Positions 417 through 48,294 are shown, counted from the stretch's first letter. The stretch is 64,000 nucleotides of DNA from Turneriellaceae bacterium (GCA_050304475.1 JBNLDQ010000026.1:376-64375); one strand, 5' to 3'. Made by a program: numbers and translations. Notes: generated by a model not told the origin, from the letters alone.

Positions 417-1479
417 AAAATATCAGATTATCGACGCAAACCGCAAATACTGCGACTACTCGGGGTACAGGTGGGATCAACTCATTCGCCTGAACTATCT
501 TGATCTCTTGTTCAACCGGAATTTTAAAGTAGAAGACTTAAAGAAAAAAAGAAACAAAATCAACTACAAAATCTTTGAAACCCCGCACAAAACAATAGAC
601 GGCAAACTCATGCCCGTCAGAGCGGGCGTCGTCTACTCTAAAAATATAATCTATATATTTATTGACAACATCACCACCGAAGTTGAACTCATGAACAAAG
701 TTCAACAATGGAGGGTACAAATGGAAAAATTATTAGCAGGATTAACAAATAATGAAGATGTTGGTATTCTAATCTATAAAAATGTCGCAGGTTTTTGTTT
801 CGCAAATGATTTTATATGTGAAACTTTAGGATACAATAAAGATGAACTATTAGAATTAGGGTATTTTTATGATGTTTTGCATAAAGATGATTTTAACAAG
901 GTTTTTACGCAATTTAATGAGCTATTGGAAGGTAAAAGACAAAAAATAAAATCACAGGCAAGATTCATACGTAAAAATGGTACTATAATTTCGGCTGATT
1001 TTTTAGCAACTAATTATACGGATTCTAACGGAGACCCTTTGACAGTAATGGAGGTTGAGAATATAGTTGATACAACAGAAGTTATGGAGGATACAAACAC
1101 TAGCAACTTTGAAAAAATTTTGTCGCTTATAGATGAACGAGATTATAAAGGGGTTTTAATTAAAGAAATTGGTGGTGGCCTTTACGGAAATCAGTTGGGT
1201 TGCAAAGCCCTGGGATATAATTTAAATGAAATAATGCAATTGAAAGGGCCTGAAATTGCACATAAAGAAAGTTTTGGTGTTGCATTAAAATCCATGATTA
1301 AACTTGTAGCAAGCTTAAAATCCTCATTAAATTTTGACTGTAAATTTCAAGGTAAAAATGGAATTAATATAATTTCAAATATAACATTAAAGACAAAAAA
1401 AGAATCTGGCACTCGTTTTGTTATTTTAATTATGAACGATATTACCAGAAGTAAAATATTGGATAACGAGGTAGCTTAA
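388..1479 (+). CDS. PAS-domain-only protein (about three PAS folds, no output domain)
   Basis: ORF track. It contains repeated PAS-like segments (FICETLGYNKDELLELGYFYDVLHKDDF...ARFIRKNGTIISADFLATNY...VENIVDTTE). The TTG start at 388 overlaps the divergent HTH gene by 29 nt. An alternative ATG at 721 (GGAGGgtacaaATG) has the same start context as the downstream paralog, so the true start is uncertain. Confidence 0.65.
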   Translation: MGDVFDFLLIKYQIIDANRKYCDYSGYRWDQLIRLNYLDLLFNRNFKVEDLKKKRNKINYKIFETPHKTIDGKLMPVRAGVVYSKNIIYIFIDNITTEVELMNKVQQWRVQMEKLLAGLTNNEDVGILIYKNVAGFCFANDFICETLGYNKDELLELGYFYDVLHKDDFNKVFTQFNELLEGKRQKIKSQARFIRKNGTIISADFLATNYTDSNGDPLTVMEVENIVDTTEVMEDTNTSNFEKILSLIDERDYKGVLIKEIGGGLYGNQLGCKALGYNLNEIMQLKGPEIAHKESFGVALKSMIKLVASLKSSLNFDCKFQGKNGINIISNITLKTKKESGTRFVILIMNDITRSKILDNEVA

Positions 1480-1627: not shown

Positions 1628-2368
1628 ATGAATAAAATATTAGCGGGGTTAGCAAACAAAGAAGGAGTGGGTATTTTAATTGCAAAAAGTTCTTTTGGCC
1701 TTGTTTATGCCAACGATTTTATTTGCGAAACTTTTGGTTATACTAAGGATGAACTTTTACAATTAGATATAACCTACATAATGGATTGGAAATCTCAAGA
1801 GGATAAAATAGATAAATATTTTGCCGTATTAAATGGTGATACACATAAAACAAAAATGTCGATACGATTTGTACGAAATAATAAGAGTATCTTTATAGCT
1901 GAAACGAATATTACAAATCATGGTGACAATACAGTTATCGAATTAGAAAATATTACCGATACTGGAGAAACATTTAGTGCTATTGATAATAGTGCATTGA
2001 TGAAAACAGCCGAGAAATATGATACAAATGAAGCTGGTATATTGATTATTTCTACAAAAGAAGGGGTTTCTTATGCTAACAAAGTAGCCTATGAAGCGTT
2101 TGGCTATAGTAAAAATGAAATTCTTAATTTAAACCAGCCTAACCAGTTTACGCATTCTAATGATCTCTCTAAACTAACCCGAAAAGCAATTACAGTTTAT
2201 ACCGGACTTTCATCGAAAGCGGAATTTCCTGTTCGTTTTTTAAAAAAAGACGGGGGTGTTTTTTCGGCAGATCTGGCATTAAGCAAACATAAAGAAGACG
2301 GTATCAAATTTCTAATCATGCAATTTGACAACATTGAACACCTGGGCGACGCGGCGGCGGCAAGTTAA
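1628..2368 (+). CDS. PAS-domain-only protein (two PAS folds), paralog of 388..1479
   Basis: ORF track. MNKILAGLANKEGVGILIAKSSFGLVYANDFICETFGYTKDELLQL parallels MEKLLAGLTNNEDVGILIYKNVAGFCFANDFICETLGYNKDELLEL in the upstream gene. An SD-like GAGG sits 6 nt before the ATG. Confidence 0.75.
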   Translation: MNKILAGLANKEGVGILIAKSSFGLVYANDFICETFGYTKDELLQLDITYIMDWKSQEDKIDKYFAVLNGDTHKTKMSIRFVRNNKSIFIAETNITNHGDNTVIELENITDTGETFSAIDNSALMKTAEKYDTNEAGILIISTKEGVSYANKVAYEAFGYSKNEILNLNQPNQFTHSNDLSKLTRKAITVYTGLSSKAEFPVRFLKKDGGVFSADLALSKHKEDGIKFLIMQFDNIEHLGDAAAAS

Positions 2369-42272: not shown

Positions 42273-44330
42273 ATGAACTCTGCCCGGGATAATATCGAAG
42301 ACACGGAAAAAAAACGAATTCGGGAACACTTGCTGGAGCGCGTTCGCCTTGCGCCTTCAACCCCCGGCTGCTATCTATGGCTGGGCGAGAACGAAGAACC
42401 GGGTTCGGATCGAAAAGTTCTCTATGTCGGTAAAGCGATCAATTTGCGCTCGCGCACCCGGCAATATCTCAATACCGACGATTATAAAACTCTCTTTCTC
42501 ATGGCCAGGGTGCGCGACATCGACTGGATCTCAACCAACAATGAGGTGGAGGCGCTGCTCCTTGAAAATAATCTCATTAAAAAACACAACCCGCCGTATA
42601 ACGTACGCCTGCGCGACGATAAAAGTTACCCCTATCTTTGTTTGACCATGGGCGAGCCTTTCCCCCGGTTGATTGTCACGCGAAAAAAGAAGAACCCGAA
42701 GCACTTGTATTTCGGCCCATACATCGACGCCGGGGCCGCCCGCAATACATTGGCATTGATCCACCGGATTTTTCCTATCCGGAAAAGGGCTCTGAAACTG
42801 CCTTTAAAAAAGCCGGCTCGCCCCTGCCTGAACTATCATATTGGCCGTTGTCTTTCACCGTGCAGCGGCAAGGTGGGCATCGAAGAGTATGGGGAACTGA
42901 TACAAAAAATAAAATCTTTTCTCGAAGGAAAAAACGACGAGCTGGTCCGGTTGCTGCAAAAAGAGATGGGCGAGTTTTCGGAAAACCAAGAGTATGAGAA
43001 AGCGGCAGCCAGGCGGGACATGCTGCGGGACATTGAAACCCTTTACGCCGATCAATCCGTTCATGCCGAAGAAGAAAACCAAAACTACGATGTCATTGGC
43101 ATGTATGTCGTCTCCAGGCGCGAGCTGGCCGAATCTCTGGATATGGAAACAATCAGCTACCAGCGGCAATTTCGGGAACAATCGGCTTACCTGGCTCAAT
43201 TTGTTCTGTTGCGCGTGAGAAACGGCAACTTGATCAATAAGGGAGCCTACACCATGACGGATATTCCCGCTGAAAAAGACGATGAAAATTTACGCAATGA
43301 ATTTATGGACGGGTTTTTTCGGGAATACTATTTGCAATTGCCCGACCCGCCGCCCAGGATTTTTGCCGGCTCCCCTTTTTTTAACGGCGAGATCTGGAGC
43401 CAGGCCATCAAAAAAAGCGCCGGGGTTTCGGCAGAGATCATTTCGCCGGAAAACGGCAGCTTAAAACATACCGCCCCGGAGGGGCAAGGTGCAAACCGGG
43501 GTTTAATGAAAATGGCCGTAAACAACGCGCGCCTGACGTTAAGAGAAAAAGTGCTTTCGGAGCAAATTCGAAACCAAAGATTCGGGTTGCGCCAAATTCA
43601 AAAATTTCTCGATCTGGAACGCCTGCCGGAAATTATCGAGTGTTACGACATTTCAAACATACAAGGCAAACAAGCGGTCGGTTGCGGGGTCTACTTAAAA
43701 AACGGGATTCCATACAAGGCCGGTTACAGGCGCTACAAAATCAGGACCAAAGAGACGCCCGACGACCCGGCGATGATGCATGAAGTCCTGGACCGGCGTC
43801 TTGCCCGGTTAAAGAGCGATAAACGCGAAATCGCGGCGCCTGATTTGATTGTCATTGACGGGGGCGCCACCCAACTCAATGCCGCGCTGGAAGCCCGCAG
43901 GAAAAACGGAGCGAAAATACCGATGATCGGCTTGGCAAAAAAGCTGGAAGAAATTTACACCGAAGAGGGTGAAATTTTGCAAATGGATAAAAACAGCCCC
44001 GGTATGCTCATTTTGCGTTTGGCCCGCGATGAAGCGCATCGTTTTTCTGTTTCTTATCACCGGACCCTGCGCAACAAGAAAAGTTTAACATCTTCGTTTG
44101 CCGCCATACCGGGGATGGGCCCGCAAAAAACGGCCAAAGTTTTGGAGATGATTCAAAACGGAAAGCTTTCCGGTTCGGACCGCAAGAAGTTGCGCGAAAC
44201 AGCCATCTCAATCAAGGGAGTCACCCCGGAAATGGCCGATCGCATTGTTGAAACAATTCAAACGATTGAATCGATTCGCTCGGCTTCGCCGGAAAAAGAA
44301 ACTACGGAAAAGTCAAACGAAGCGGATTAA
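42273..44330 (+). CDS. uvrC: Excinuclease ABC subunit C
   Basis: It has a GIY-YIG N-terminus (GCYLW...LYVGKAINLRSR), a UVR domain (YEKAAARRDMLRDIE) and a C-terminal endonuclease/HhH region. Confidence 0.95.
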   Translation: MNSARDNIEDTEKKRIREHLLERVRLAPSTPGCYLWLGENEEPGSDRKVLYVGKAINLRSRTRQYLNTDDYKTLFLMARVRDIDWISTNNEVEALLLENNLIKKHNPPYNVRLRDDKSYPYLCLTMGEPFPRLIVTRKKKNPKHLYFGPYIDAGAARNTLALIHRIFPIRKRALKLPLKKPARPCLNYHIGRCLSPCSGKVGIEEYGELIQKIKSFLEGKNDELVRLLQKEMGEFSENQEYEKAAARRDMLRDIETLYADQSVHAEEENQNYDVIGMYVVSRRELAESLDMETISYQRQFREQSAYLAQFVLLRVRNGNLINKGAYTMTDIPAEKDDENLRNEFMDGFFREYYLQLPDPPPRIFAGSPFFNGEIWSQAIKKSAGVSAEIISPENGSLKHTAPEGQGANRGLMKMAVNNARLTLREKVLSEQIRNQRFGLRQIQKFLDLERLPEIIECYDISNIQGKQAVGCGVYLKNGIPYKAGYRRYKIRTKETPDDPAMMHEVLDRRLARLKSDKREIAAPDLIVIDGGATQLNAALEARRKNGAKIPMIGLAKKLEEIYTEEGEILQMDKNSPGMLILRLARDEAHRFSVSYHRTLRNKKSLTSSFAAIPGMGPQKTAKVLEMIQNGKLSGSDRKKLRETAISIKGVTPEMADRIVETIQTIESIRSASPEKETTEKSNEAD

Positions 44331-46093
44331 CTGCATTCGCCTTCGCCATATTCCATCACATAAGGCGAATCTTTGCCCCAATCGTAATGAAGCATTTCGT
44401 CTTCTTCCACCGGCATTTTTTCGCTGCTGAATTCTGCGACAATGTCGGTCATTCGCTCCTTGCTCAGACCGGTAATAAAATCATCAAACGATGCATTCTC
44501 GGAAGCTTCGTTTTGAAATATTTCAATCAAACGGTGTATGAACCTGGGGATTCGCCGGGCCAGGATTTTTTCATTGATTTTAACGCCCATGCGCACTTCA
44601 CCGGCGCTCAACAAAGCCCCGCCATAATAAAGGTTATAGGCAGGCGCCTGTTGTTCGTCCGAAAAGGTAGTATCGGCCCGCCCTGAAAAACCCAGCGTCG
44701 CCACATGGTGCCGCGCGCAGGAGTTTGAGCACCCCGAGACATGAATGGTTGCGCCCTCGAACCGGGCGTCTTGGCGCCAGGTATCGTCAAACTCTTCCGA
44801 CAAGACCCTGGCTAAACCCGGCGAATGGGTGATCCCCGCCGCGCAGGTTGCGGAGCCCAGGCAAGTAATCACATCGGCAAAACTGTGGTGACCGGGACGG
44901 CCCAGACCTTCGCTCGTCAGATAGTCGTAAATTTTTCCAAAAAACTCTTTCTTGTTTTCAGGGGCGACAACCAGTCCTTTGAGCACCGCATCTTGAGAGT
45001 CGCTCAGCGTAATATAACCCTTTGCATTGCCATCGCGCCAACCGTCAAGTTGATCGGCCAGGGCGCGCAACGTCTCAGGAGTAAAATCACCGTTTGGAAC
45101 CCGAACAATGACCATGTACTCATTTTTGCGAACGGTGGGTTTTATATTTTGTTCAAACCAAAAATGTTTGGCGGCTTCGGCGCTGCGGTCAAACGGATTT
45201 GAATAATCAAACTCTTCGGGTTCGACTATTTTCGCTTCTATCTCGGGAAGTTCGATTCCTTCGCTTTGTATGGCCGCCAGCTCTTCTTCTACGTAACCGA
45301 GAAACGTTTCAAACCCGATTTTGTTCAATTGAAACTTCAACCGGGCTTCGCTGCGTTTTGAGCGGTCGCCGTGTTTGTCAAACGCCCTCAAAATCGCCAG
45401 CGCGTGCAACAACGTCTCTTCTACGGGGATAAACTCTTTGTAAAGCCGGGACGCCATGGGGTTTGAGCCTAACGCGCCGCCCATGAAGACCTTAAAGCCC
45501 GGTTTACCATCGGAAAGAGCCGCGATAAACCCGAGGTCGTGGATCGAGGCGCCGGCATAATCTTTCTCATTTTCGCTGAAACCGATTTTAAACTTCCTCG
45601 GCAGATGTTGCGTAACGCGGTTTCTTAAAAAGAAATGCACCGTTTGCTCAACTGCCGGCATGATATCAAAAAGCTGGTCGCGTCCGTCGCCGGCAAAGGG
45701 CGAAGTAATGATGTTGCGGATGGTAGCCCCGCTCGATTCGCGCGTTGTCAGCCCGTGATCGGCTAACGTTTGTAAAAGCGGGATAATGTTCCCGATCTTG
45801 ATAAAGTAAATTTGAATATCCTGGCGCGTTGTGATATGCATCGAGCCTTTGGCGTACTTTGAGACGGCTTCGCATAAACCGTCCACTTGATTCCGGTTTA
45901 AGCGTCCGCCGGGTATTTTCACCCGGATCATAAACTGGGCCGGTTGCCGCTGGCCGTAAACGCCCTGGATCAAACGCCGGTGTTTAAATTCTTCGGGGTC
46001 AAAGGTTCTATTTTGAAAACCTTCGATTTTTTCCTGAAACTCTTTTAATTCTTCGTCAACTACGCCGTTACGCGCAAAATAAAATTCGCTCAT
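44327..46093 (-). CDS. Ferredoxin-type sulfite/nitrite reductase hemoprotein (siroheme/4Fe-4S)
   Basis: The cluster/siroheme Cys motifs TCLGSATCAAG and VSGCSNSCARHH are present. The start was set at MSEFYF. Its ATG overlaps the cysH stop (TAATG at 46091-46095). Confidence 0.85.
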   Translation of the reverse strand: MSEFYFARNGVVDEELKEFQEKIEGFQNRTFDPEEFKHRRLIQGVYGQRQPAQFMIRVKIPGGRLNRNQVDGLCEAVSKYAKGSMHITTRQDIQIYFIKIGNIIPLLQTLADHGLTTRESSGATIRNIITSPFAGDGRDQLFDIMPAVEQTVHFFLRNRVTQHLPRKFKIGFSENEKDYAGASIHDLGFIAALSDGKPGFKVFMGGALGSNPMASRLYKEFIPVEETLLHALAILRAFDKHGDRSKRSEARLKFQLNKIGFETFLGYVEEELAAIQSEGIELPEIEAKIVEPEEFDYSNPFDRSAEAAKHFWFEQNIKPTVRKNEYMVIVRVPNGDFTPETLRALADQLDGWRDGNAKGYITLSDSQDAVLKGLVVAPENKKEFFGKIYDYLTSEGLGRPGHHSFADVITCLGSATCAAGITHSPGLARVLSEEFDDTWRQDARFEGATIHVSGCSNSCARHHVATLGFSGRADTTFSDEQQAPAYNLYYGGALLSAGEVRMGVKINEKILARRIPRFIHRLIEIFQNEASENASFDDFITGLSKERMTDIVAEFSSEKMPVEEDEMLHYDWGKDSPYVMEYGEGECS

Positions 46094-46845
46094 TATGACT
46101 CCTTTTCCGCATTTTTGTTCGCCACATGCAATCCGCATTCTTTATGGGCGCAATCTTCCCACCACCATCTGCCGGCCCTGGGTTCTTCGCCTTCCAGAAT
46201 CGGACGCGTACAAGGAGCGCAGCCAATACTGGCATAGTTTTTCTTATGCAAAATATTAAACGGGACTTTGTGTTTTTCTACGTATTTCCAGATCTCGTCA
46301 TCCGTCCAGTGGAGTAGAGGGTGAATCTTGATAATAGAGTTCTCATAGTCCAGCTCGATAATGGGAATCGATTCCCGTTCGGGCGAATGTATTTTCCGAA
46401 TCCCGGTGATCCAGATTTGTTTTCCGGCGAGAGCTCTTTTGAGAGGTTCAACCTTACGAATATGGCAGCATTCGACTCTGTTTTCAACGGAATCGTAAAA
46501 GCTGTTTTGCCCTTTTGTATTCAATAAATTCTGCAACAGTTGCGTATCGGGAACAAAGGTTTCAATCGGCAATTTATACTTATCTGCCGTTCGCCGTTGC
46601 AACTCAATTGTTTCATTAAACAATCTCCCCGTATCAATCGTAAAAATATGAACCGGGAAGTTGTTTCTTGCGATCATATCGGTCAAGACCTGATCTTCAA
46701 CCCCGAATGAACTGGAAAAAACAACCCCTTCGGGTATTTCCGATGTGACCGCTTGAATCACCTCTTCGGCGTTTTTACCGTTTAACTTCCCCTGTTGTTT
46801 TTCTACGTACTCTTTTTTTGTCTCAATAGTTTTTAAATCTAACAT
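46093..46845 (-). CDS. cysH: Assimilatory APS/PAPS reductase (Fe-S-type Cys pattern)
   Basis: It has the C-terminal KECGLH, plus VECCH and GCAPCT cysteine pairs typical of the Fe-S-containing APS-reductase form. Confidence 0.9.
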   Translation of the reverse strand: MLDLKTIETKKEYVEKQQGKLNGKNAEEVIQAVTSEIPEGVVFSSSFGVEDQVLTDMIARNNFPVHIFTIDTGRLFNETIELQRRTADKYKLPIETFVPDTQLLQNLLNTKGQNSFYDSVENRVECCHIRKVEPLKRALAGKQIWITGIRKIHSPERESIPIIELDYENSIIKIHPLLHWTDDEIWKYVEKHKVPFNILHKKNYASIGCAPCTRPILEGEEPRAGRWWWEDCAHKECGLHVANKNAEKES

Positions 46846-46918
46846 AATATAATACCCTCGCTTTTTGCTTTAATACCAGAAAATAGATTGTATAAAAATC
46901 TGGAACGACCGTTAACAG
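46846..46918 (-). promoter_or_regulatory. Leader-cysH spacer with a weak hairpin plus U-run overlapping the last Cys codons and the stop
   Basis: The RNA segment CUGUUAACGGUCGUUCCAG (46918..46900) can form an interrupted 6-bp stem and is followed by AUUUUUAU. No strong GC-rich terminator is visible by eye. Confidence 0.3.
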
Positions 46919-47043
46919 CAGCAACAGCAACAACAAAGACGTGAGTTGAGAGGAAGACAACACAGAGAAGAACCGCTTTTGGCAATAGTTAACTTTGGTG
47001 CGTAAACGTTTTTCATATTCGACGCAGGCTCAAATTTGAACAT
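46912..47043 (-). CDS. Candidate cysteine-rich leader peptide (43 aa) upstream of cysH-sir; not in the ORF track
   Basis: Manual translation gives MFKFEPASNMKNVYAPKLTIAKSGSSLCCLPLNSRLCCCCCCC*. GGAGGAG (47053..47047) lies 3 nt before the ATG at 47043. The TAA at 46914..46912 lies 66 nt before the cysH ATG. Confidence 0.6.
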   Translation of the reverse strand: MFKFEPASNMKNVYAPKLTIAKSGSSLCCLPLNSRLCCCCCCC

Positions 47044-47109
47044 GTTCTCCTCCGATAATTTATGTACAAGCTATTAAATGATAGATATCCCGGCAATTTT
47101 TTTTTAGGG

Positions 47110-48294
47110 CTAAGGTTGTATCGTATTGCCTTCCTCCAGGGAGGGTTCATTGAAAAACGAAGGCGGTAAAATACCTTCCGGTTGTTCATCGGCTTCGCCG
47201 GTATCTTCTTTAGGCTCTGACGTCTTTTCAAGCTCTCTGGTTTCCAGCAACAAGTTTCGCGCTTCAGTCTCCCATTGCAAGGCTACCTGGCTGTATTTAC
47301 CGTCGGGGAATTCGGTTCGCGCTTTCGAGAAAGCTGATACGGCTTGGTTGTATTCCGCCTTTTCATAATAGGCTTGCCCCATTTTTATATATGCGTTTTC
47401 ATCTCGCGTCGCAGGGCGCCGGGCTACGACATCTTCAAATGTGGCAATCGCTTGATCGTATTGCTTTTCCATTATATAAATATTGCCTAAATAATACAAG
47501 CTGTCTTCGGCATGGGAAGTATAGGTAAAGTTTTCTGCAATAAACGAGAAATATTTTTTTGCGCTTTCGGGTTCTCCAACACTCAGCGTATCGGCTCCCG
47601 TTCGGAACATAGAATCGGCAAAGCGGGTTGCCATATCTTCGCGGTTTCGATTACGATCGACATAAATATTAAAGAATTTTTGATACTGTAAAAAAGCTTC
47701 TTCATGACGCCCCGTTTGAAAATAGGCCCTTGCCAACTCCATATTCGCTTCCGGATTTTTCGCATTTTCCGAAAGAGCAATTTCATAGTTTTTCATGGAT
47801 TGATCAAACTCTTTCTGGCGCGCATAGTAACGGGCAATTTCCACATAAATATCGGAACGCAAATTCGGGTCGACAGTTTTTGAAAGCAAAACCATGAGGC
47901 CGTTAAAACCCTCTTCCGTATTGTAGCGGGACAACTGCAGTTTTGATATTTTAAAACGGACCTGGTCGGCCAACTCTTCATCCATTTCGGTCGCCAGTAA
48001 ACGACGGTATTTGCCGATTGCCACATCGATATTGCCAAGTTTTTCATAAGACTCGGCCAGATGGTATAGCGCTTCTTTCGCCTGCTCGGTATCGGGAAAA
48101 TGCGAAGCGACGGTGGTGAAAAGTTCAACCGCTTTCTTCATGGTTTCTTCGCTATCCTGTTCAAGTAATAGCTTGCCTTTGGTTAACAATGCGCTGGCTT
48201 CGCGGTTAGGCGCAAAGTATTCTTCATTGACGGTAATGACACCCAACCCGGACAACATTGCCAGAGAACCGATTACTAAAAAGATATTTTTCAT
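47110..48294 (-). CDS. TPR-repeat lipoprotein or periplasmic protein
   Basis: It has the signal MKNIFLVIGSLAMLSGLG and multiple TPR-like units (e.g. AKEALYHLAESYEKLGNIDVAIGKY, AEDSLYYLGNIYIMEKQYDQAIATF). It overlaps the upstream gene by 4 nt. Confidence 0.75.
   Translation of the reverse strand: MKNIFLVIGSLAMLSGLGVITVNEEYFAPNREASALLTKGKLLLEQDSEETMKKAVELFTTVASHFPDTEQAKEALYHLAESYEKLGNIDVAIGKYRRLLATEMDEELADQVRFKISKLQLSRYNTEEGFNGLMVLLSKTVDPNLRSDIYVEIARYYARQKEFDQSMKNYEIALSENAKNPEANMELARAYFQTGRHEEAFLQYQKFFNIYVDRNRNREDMATRFADSMFRTGADTLSVGEPESAKKYFSFIAENFTYTSHAEDSLYYLGNIYIMEKQYDQAIATFEDVVARRPATRDENAYIKMGQAYYEKAEYNQAVSAFSKARTEFPDGKYSQVALQWETEARNLLLETRELEKTSEPKEDTGEADEQPEGILPPSFFNEPSLEEGNTIQP

Follow-up and report, generated by a model that had tools for sequence, protein, structure and literature searches.

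A conserved cysteine-rich leader ORF, a candidate cysteine sensor, upstream of the cysH-sir operon of a Leptospirales-like spirochete

The cysH-sir operon and the ORF that precedes it

The window, meaning the whole 64-kb stretch of DNA analysed here, harbors on its minus strand a two-gene cysH-sir module. The first gene, cysH (46093..46845), codes for a thioredoxin-dependent APS/PAPS reductase: it matches PF01507 (5e-47) and passes the cut-offs of both TIGR02055 (thioredoxin-dependent APS reductase) and NF002537 (the NCBIfam model for phosphoadenylyl-sulfate reductase), and its CC...CxxC motif is invariant in the five CysH proteins compared below. The start of the second gene (44327..46093) overlaps the cysH stop in a TAATG at 46093. 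Its product is a NirA/Sir-family sirohaem reductase with NIR_SIR and NIR_SIR_ferr domains, which reaches no equivalog cut-off in NCBIfam and has its best match in the NirA family; from its domains and context it is presumably a sulfite reductase. The same contig encodes an FtsH protein (31456..33408) sharing 65-76% identity with proteins of Spirochaetia, Leptospiraceae and Turneriella; judged by it, the window comes from an uncultured Leptospirales-like spirochete.

Directly upstream of cysH and on the same strand lies a 43-codon ORF (47043..46912) that reads MFKFEPASNMKNVYAPKLTIAKSGSSLCCLPLNSRLCCCCCCC and stops at a TAA (46914..46912). Nine of its 43 codons specify Cys, and the final seven (TGT TGT TGC TGT TGC TGC TGT, 46935..46915) do so consecutively; they are presumed to form the stalling or sensing site. 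Another Cys pair (TGT TGT, codons 28-29) is found at 46957..46962, and a Cys or Cys-Cys cluster also precedes the final one in each of the related loci. On the minus strand, translation signals are present in the form of GGAGGAG (47053..47047) followed by AAC and the ATG at 47043. The leader stop is separated by a 66-nt spacer from the cysH ATG (46845), which has its own Shine-Dalgarno sequence, GAGGG (46855..46859). All these details (the ORF at 47043, its seven terminal Cys codons, the GGAGGAG, the spacer length and the TAATG overlap) agree exactly with the preliminary description of this DNA. The run of seven TGY codons is the single run of at least four in the 64-kb window when both strands are scanned, and no other credible Cys-run small ORF was identified there. 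It is not a pure repeat, TGT and TGC being mixed, and TRF detects only a 9-nt period with 2.4 copies. A family search with the leader peptide returned no match in Pfam or NCBIfam.

Upstream of the ORF, a -35-like hexamer TTGCCG (47091..47096), preceded by an A-tract, is followed after 17 nt by the -10-like hexamer TAGCTT (47068..47073), the end of which is 24 nt upstream of the leader ATG. The -10-like box is a weak match in the window and was not flagged by a consensus scan. A further candidate promoter within the spacer, TTAACG-17-TACAAT (46915..46887), was rejected, being at chance level and not conserved. A terminator-like hairpin with a T-run (GAAGGTATTTTACCGCCTTC GTTTTTCAAT) is also present at 47159..47178 on the minus strand. 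It falls inside the 3'-terminal part of the TPR gene located upstream, whose stop codon follows some 50 nt later.

Conservation of the leader and of its reading frame

A CysH search over 5.8 billion protein clusters returned only four relatives above 60% identity (74%, 64%, 62% and 61%), all from other metagenomes. Their loci are hereafter L002 to L005, the window being L001; the 5' end of L005 lies off its contig. A short ORF with C-terminal Cys clusters precedes cysH in all four relatives; counting the window, its stop codon and the start of cysH are 64-71 nt apart in each locus. The predicted peptides are MFKTETASTMNASFSNNDNIGGSSICCILSPSSLCCCSC in L002, MNRSPNYIRRQYGQKNVTPSSYISTTAFYFITNCSSHSYCPSCCCR in L003, MNRSANHFTHWHGQRDVIFYSKVSFQKSVPCSSCLCSPSSCCCR in L004 and, with its beginning cut, SCLSSTCCPSCCCR in L005, each ending at a stop codon. 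A Shine-Dalgarno sequence and an ATG in the Cys frame are present in every locus that retains its 5' end (the window and L002-L004), the former being GGAGGAG in L002 and AGAGGAG in L003 and L004. The cysH Shine-Dalgarno sequence and an ATTATG start context are likewise conserved in 5/5 loci. The preliminary description had proposed a search of relatives as a check, loss of the ORF or of its Cys run (as in a length-variable TGY microsatellite) being the outcome that would have spoken against it; the ORF and its Cys clusters are instead retained in the four closest relatives.

The arrangement of TTGCCG, 17 nt and a -10 box recurs upstream of the leader in the four loci where this region is available, with TAGCTT in the window, TATTTT in L002, TATAAT in L003 and TAATAT in L004. 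This conserved promoter-like element speaks against transcription beginning downstream of the ORF; as far as can be judged from sequence, it likely begins upstream. The A-tract and TTGCCG (47091..47110, minus strand, in the window) are invariant across these four diverged loci. This conservation exceeds what a -35 element needs, so that the segment could also, or instead, be the binding site of a sulfur-responsive regulator. The genes further upstream differ among the loci (a TPR gene, a GDSL lipase, cobS), suggesting that the leader ORF travels with cysH-sir.

The leader was not encountered outside this group: a scan of genome contigs for Cys clusters upstream of 80 more distant cysH genes (identity at most 59%, mostly from Bacteroidota) found none with a leader. 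Cys-rich frames observed before cysH in Chitinophagaceae were rejected as off-frame reads of a conserved peroxiredoxin gene. In L012, L015, L022, L042, L050 and L066 (around 1150..1460), a peroxiredoxin-like gene (...ITYPASTGRNF.EVLRVIDSLQLT...VKPYLRYTPQP) ends just before cysH, and its off-frame translation is rich in Cys and imitates a Cys leader in naive scans. A metagenome scan for (TGY)6+TRA returned 120 loci, mostly CTG, CAG or TTG microsatellites, often lacking an in-frame start and with no sulfur-gene context, and is therefore uninformative on the prevalence of such leaders. Among the few matches that are not microsatellites is an ATG-started small ORF (MLVKDIISYFLMRMRIAQHSMCCCCCC, then a stop) at about 2280..2430 of L166, a JGI metagenome contig, which ends 57 nt before a 474-aa ORF.

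The differences between related loci allow the reading frame to be assessed. Between L003 and L005, the last seven codons differ by five synonymous and no non-synonymous changes in the Cys frame, by none and five in the +1 frame, and by one and four in the +2 frame. In the block that can be aligned between the window and L002, the corresponding counts are three synonymous and two non-synonymous in the Cys frame, and none and four in each of the other two frames. These figures point to the Cys frame as the one under selection, and only this frame has a conserved Shine-Dalgarno sequence with ATG and a conserved stop. The +1 frame is open from the middle of the ORF to the cysH start in 5/5 loci. 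The +2 frame is also largely free of stops, a consequence of the low A content of the region. Public gene calls nevertheless follow the +1 frame, as a hydrophobic 'protein' across leader and spacer, in L004 (587..736) and L005 (1..132), and the Cys frame is never called. These calls are likely a systematic misannotation, and they flag a problem of annotation pipelines, which either miss the leader ORF or choose the wrong (+1) frame. Taken on the comparative evidence, the leader ORF is real, conserved and previously unannotated.

Predicted RNA structure at the end of the leader

A local hairpin can be folded in each of the five loci from the final Cys codons, the stop codon and the nucleotides that come next. 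The stop falls within or beside the loop, and a run of four to six U follows the hairpin. In the window, the hairpin (46927..46900) has a predicted energy of -6.4 kcal/mol (z = -0.1, on a par with shuffled sequences), and a U5 run (46898..46894) starts 13 nt after the stop codon; this is the weak hairpin with U-run already noticed in the preliminary description. The predicted values are -8.6 kcal/mol (z = -2.8) with U4 in L002, -11.8 kcal/mol (z = -3.4) with U5 in L003, -6.5 kcal/mol (z = +0.1) with U5 in L004 and -9.7 kcal/mol (z = -2.2) with U6 in L005. The U-run starts at the same 13-nt offset in L003, L004 and L005, and 16 nt after the stop in L002. The hairpin is thus significant in three of the five loci (L002, L003 and L005) but does not exceed chance in the window or L004, and a terminator scan did not call the hairpin/U-run element. 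The predicted layout is conserved, yet it is thermodynamically marginal in the window itself.

The hairpin reads UUGUUGCC-GUUAA-GGCAACAA in L003 and UUGUUGUC-GAUGA-GACAACAA in L005. These two differ by one compensatory exchange of C-G to U-A, the 5' partner of which is a synonymous third-codon position; with five loci in total, three of them closely related, the covariation rests on this one base pair. The minimum-energy stem ends 5 nt short of the U-run in both, and two further base pairs across a 2-nt bulge, placed by hand and not computed, would narrow the gap to 1 nt. A second hairpin with U5 (ACAAACGUGUUUGU AUUUUUAUU) is found directly before the cysH Shine-Dalgarno sequence in L002 only (1995..2030). 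L002 is also the sole locus with a statistically strong pairing between an anti-Shine-Dalgarno segment of the leader and this sequence.

No other structure emerged. Rfam searches of the whole window at the gathering threshold, of 46700..47250 at E up to 10, and of 20 loci (L002-L005 and 16 outgroup loci) at the gathering threshold were all negative. The fold of the whole leader in the window is no better than that of shuffled sequences (z = +0.3 and +1.2). No conserved alternative that could act as a mutually exclusive antiterminator or pause structure was found, nor any 1:2/2:3/3:4 structures, and the absence of a classical terminator/antiterminator pair suspected at the outset thus holds.

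Candidate regulation, known counterparts and origin of the operon

Several features of the attenuator class are found here: a short ORF that is equipped with start signals and lies in the 5' leader of a biosynthetic operon, enrichment in codons for the end product, and conservation in 5/5 loci of the clade as opposed to 0/80 in the outgroup. Like the trp, his, leu, thr and pheA leaders of Enterobacteria, the ORF is rich in end-product codons and precedes a biosynthetic operon. It differs from them by the lack of 1:2/2:3/3:4 alternatives, of a strong GC-rich terminator and of any Rfam match, and by the fact that the regulatory codons constitute the 5' arm of the sole conserved hairpin.

The control of cysteine genes by stalling at Cys codons is already established, so that the leader described here is a further example and not a new principle; the initial remark that Cys-run leaders are rarely if ever described was overstated. 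Leader peptides with Cys runs were predicted in Actinobacteria in 2005, upstream of the cys operon of Mycobacterium and P. acnes and of cbs of B. longum (Seliverstov et al., PMC1262725). Like the present leader, these short ORFs precede cysteine genes and carry runs of Cys codons close to their stop. They have no obvious terminator, and a Rho-dependent mechanism was suggested for them. These predictions are computational and concern another phylum, whereas a conserved hairpin and U-run directly after the stop is a feature of the present loci.

In M. smegmatis, experiments identified leaderless polycysteine small ORFs, for example one ending in CCCCCCCC before its stop, as attenuators that respond to cysteine (Canestrari et al. 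2020, 10.1101/834739). They act by sequestration of the Shine-Dalgarno sequence and control several operons in a 'Cys ribulon', with Ms5788A and Rv2334A as examples (10.1101/834739). The similarities are extensive: in both cases a short unannotated ORF, overlooked by annotation pipelines, is the first cistron of a cysteine-metabolism operon, the Cys run lies at the very C-terminus (CCCCCCCC there, CCCCCCC here), and there is no classical terminator/antiterminator pair. The mycobacterial family is defined by at least two consecutive Cys codons, as a rule C-terminal, upstream of cysteine-related genes, and such codons are present here as well. However, the mycobacterial transcripts begin at the AUG or GUG itself, whereas the present ORF has a strong Shine-Dalgarno sequence 3 nt before its ATG and a promoter-like element about 25 nt beyond that. 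Moreover, the Cys codons of mycobacteria pair with the region around the Shine-Dalgarno sequence; here such pairing is predicted in the window, with a duplex at chance level in 4/5 loci, and the Cys codons pair instead with the bases just after the stop, followed by the U-run. Finally, mycobacteria are Actinobacteria, and the present leader belongs to Spirochaetota as judged from FtsH. Because of its Shine-Dalgarno sequence, its other pairing partner and its other phylum, we place the leader outside the mycobacterial family. An independent origin is likely.

A third counterpart is the uORFC-8-2 motif upstream of cysS in Rhodobacterales, a predicted uORF with Cys codons that is accompanied by stems and a U-run (Brewer et al. 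2021, PMC8632094). It shares with the present leader conserved Cys codons inside a stem and a 3' U-run, and ribosome-mediated attenuation sensing Cys-tRNA was proposed for it. The motif, which is alphaproteobacterial, combines a tandem pair of Cys codons (positions 14-15) with two stems and controls cysS instead of sulfate reduction; we set it apart on its description only. No report of Cys leaders in spirochetes or Leptospira was found in the literature searched.

We regard it as probable, on the comparisons above, that the ORF is a leader sensing Cys-tRNA, whatever the read-out. The cysteine-sensing leader put forward in the preliminary description is thus supported as far as sequence comparison reaches. 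Ribosome stalling, together with the direction and level of control, is what we infer in the following scheme. Transcription would begin about 25 nt ahead of the leader Shine-Dalgarno sequence, at the conserved sigma-70-like promoter, and ribosomes would translate the 43-codon leader on the cysH-sir mRNA. When charged tRNA-Cys is scarce, they would stall at the Cys codons near the end of the leader, above all in the terminal run. These last codons would form the 5' arm of the hairpin, with the stop codon in its loop, the post-stop sequence as its 3' arm and the U-run next to it. A ribosome held on them would block this terminator- or pause-like hairpin, and more transcripts would extend into cysH-sir. 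When cysteine is plentiful, the ribosome would finish and leave, the freed Cys codons could pair with the post-stop segment, and expression would drop.

A sensor with specifically this hairpin/U-run read-out is a tentative proposal, to which we give somewhat less than even chances. A ribosome tightly coupled to RNA polymerase would mask the 5' arm also at plentiful cysteine, and the hairpin could still form if stalling occurred at the first Cys pair, so that polymerase pausing or loose coupling must be assumed. More doubtful is the fuller reading of a minimal two-part attenuator, in which the sensing codons would themselves be the 5' arm of a terminator or pause hairpin with the stop in its loop, an antiterminator would be dispensable, and the whole would have evolved independently in spirochetes for an APS-reductase/sulfite-reductase operon. 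If true, Spirochaetota would gain their first described case of amino-acid leader-peptide control, and its wiring would differ from that of both the classical and the mycobacterial Cys attenuators.

The same sensor could have another read-out. As in mycobacteria, the Cys codons of a vacant leader, or the pyrimidine-rich codons between its Cys clusters, could pair with the cysH Shine-Dalgarno sequence and block initiation, and stalled or queued ribosomes would free it. Besides being demonstrated for Ms5788A (10.1101/834739), this mechanism agrees with the centroid fold of the window, in which CCUC in the leader is paired to GAGG in the cysH Shine-Dalgarno sequence. The segment concerned is CUU CCU CUC (46948..46956, minus strand), a possible anti-Shine-Dalgarno; since the best leader:Shine-Dalgarno duplex of the window is at chance level, this pairing weighs little. 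In a constrained partition function, placing a ribosome on the Cys run increases the predicted accessibility of the window's Shine-Dalgarno sequence from 0.16 to 0.42, and L002 has a 12-bp duplex of -17.8 kcal/mol that beats 99% of shuffles (p ~0.006). However, compared with shuffles and other windows, the duplex is at chance level in four of the five loci, the window among them, accessibility is unchanged in L003-L005 and rises in L002 only when the whole ORF is occupied, and the mechanism does not account for a U-run conserved at a constant distance from the stop. We therefore hold this translational read-out unlikely. A Rho-dependent one, as in the tna operon, is a still smaller probability: release at the stop would bare a C-rich and G-poor spacer, Rho would terminate before or within cysH, and a ribosome stalled at the leader end would mask the loading site. 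It was proposed by Seliverstov et al. for the terminator-less mycobacterial Cys leaders (PMC1262725), and the C/G ratios of the spacer are 3.2, 5.5, 1.9 and 5.0 in L002-L005 versus about 1 locus-wide. Nevertheless, the ratio is 1.1 in the window's own spacer, 64-71 nt is short for a rut site, and with its good Shine-Dalgarno sequence the translation of cysH should protect it from Rho. Neither of these two read-outs is generally supported.

Other explanations dispense with sensing altogether. The ORF might code for a functional small Cys-rich peptide, for example metal- or sulfur-binding, with a weak terminator of its own, and be simply a neighbour of cysH. Some non-Cys residues are kept within subfamilies (MFK.E.AS.M in the window and L002, MNRS.N in L003 and L004), and the post-stop hairpin and U-run could be the terminator of such a gene. 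However, the two subfamilies have in common only the Cys clusters and the ORF position, the final cluster is not constant in its Cys count (CCCCCCC, CCCSC, CCCR), and no protein family matches. The spacer has no conserved promoter for cysH, its single match in the window being at chance level, and the distance to cysH is fixed while the upstream neighbours vary; all this makes such a peptide quite unlikely, at about the same level as the Rho-dependent read-out. That the real gene is instead a hydrophobic peptide of the +1 frame (such as AVLLCVVFLSTHVFVVAVAAV) is very improbable. This frame is open in every locus and has been called in two of them; however, it has no conserved start, Shine-Dalgarno sequence or stop, every codon difference in it is non-synonymous, and its hydrophobicity is the automatic outcome of a U-rich sequence. 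Its openness as a sign of such a peptide or of frameshifting was rejected on the same substitutions, and since +2 is open too. Even less credence can be given to a functionless chance ORF on a slippage-prone TGY microsatellite, a reading that the comparative data contradict. Cys runs do differ in length by locus (7 versus 3+1 versus 3), and metagenomic (TGY)6+stop matches are nearly always by-products of CTG, CAG or TTG repeats. The repeat is impure, though, five diverged loci retain the ORF together with start signals, promoter, fixed spacing and frame-specific synonymous change, and the ORF is absent from the 80 outgroup loci.

A Cys-tRNA-sensing leader here would extend cysteine sensing by polycysteine leaders beyond Actinobacteria, as a Shine-Dalgarno-led version in a spirochete lineage. 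The occurrence of such a version beside the actinobacterial ones would suggest that this solution arises repeatedly. With a length of about 200 nt, the region would also offer a compact and easily mutated case of control of a downstream operon by a stalled ribosome without an antiterminator.

The operon itself may have a different history from the rest of the genome. Below 60% identity, the CysH relatives are of Bacteroidota type only, in contrast to the clearly spirochaetal FtsH, and this discrepancy between the two proteins suggests that the cysH-sir module may have been acquired horizontally. Elsewhere in the window, a very long ORF of 2592 aa (56201..63979, minus strand) reaches close to the window end.
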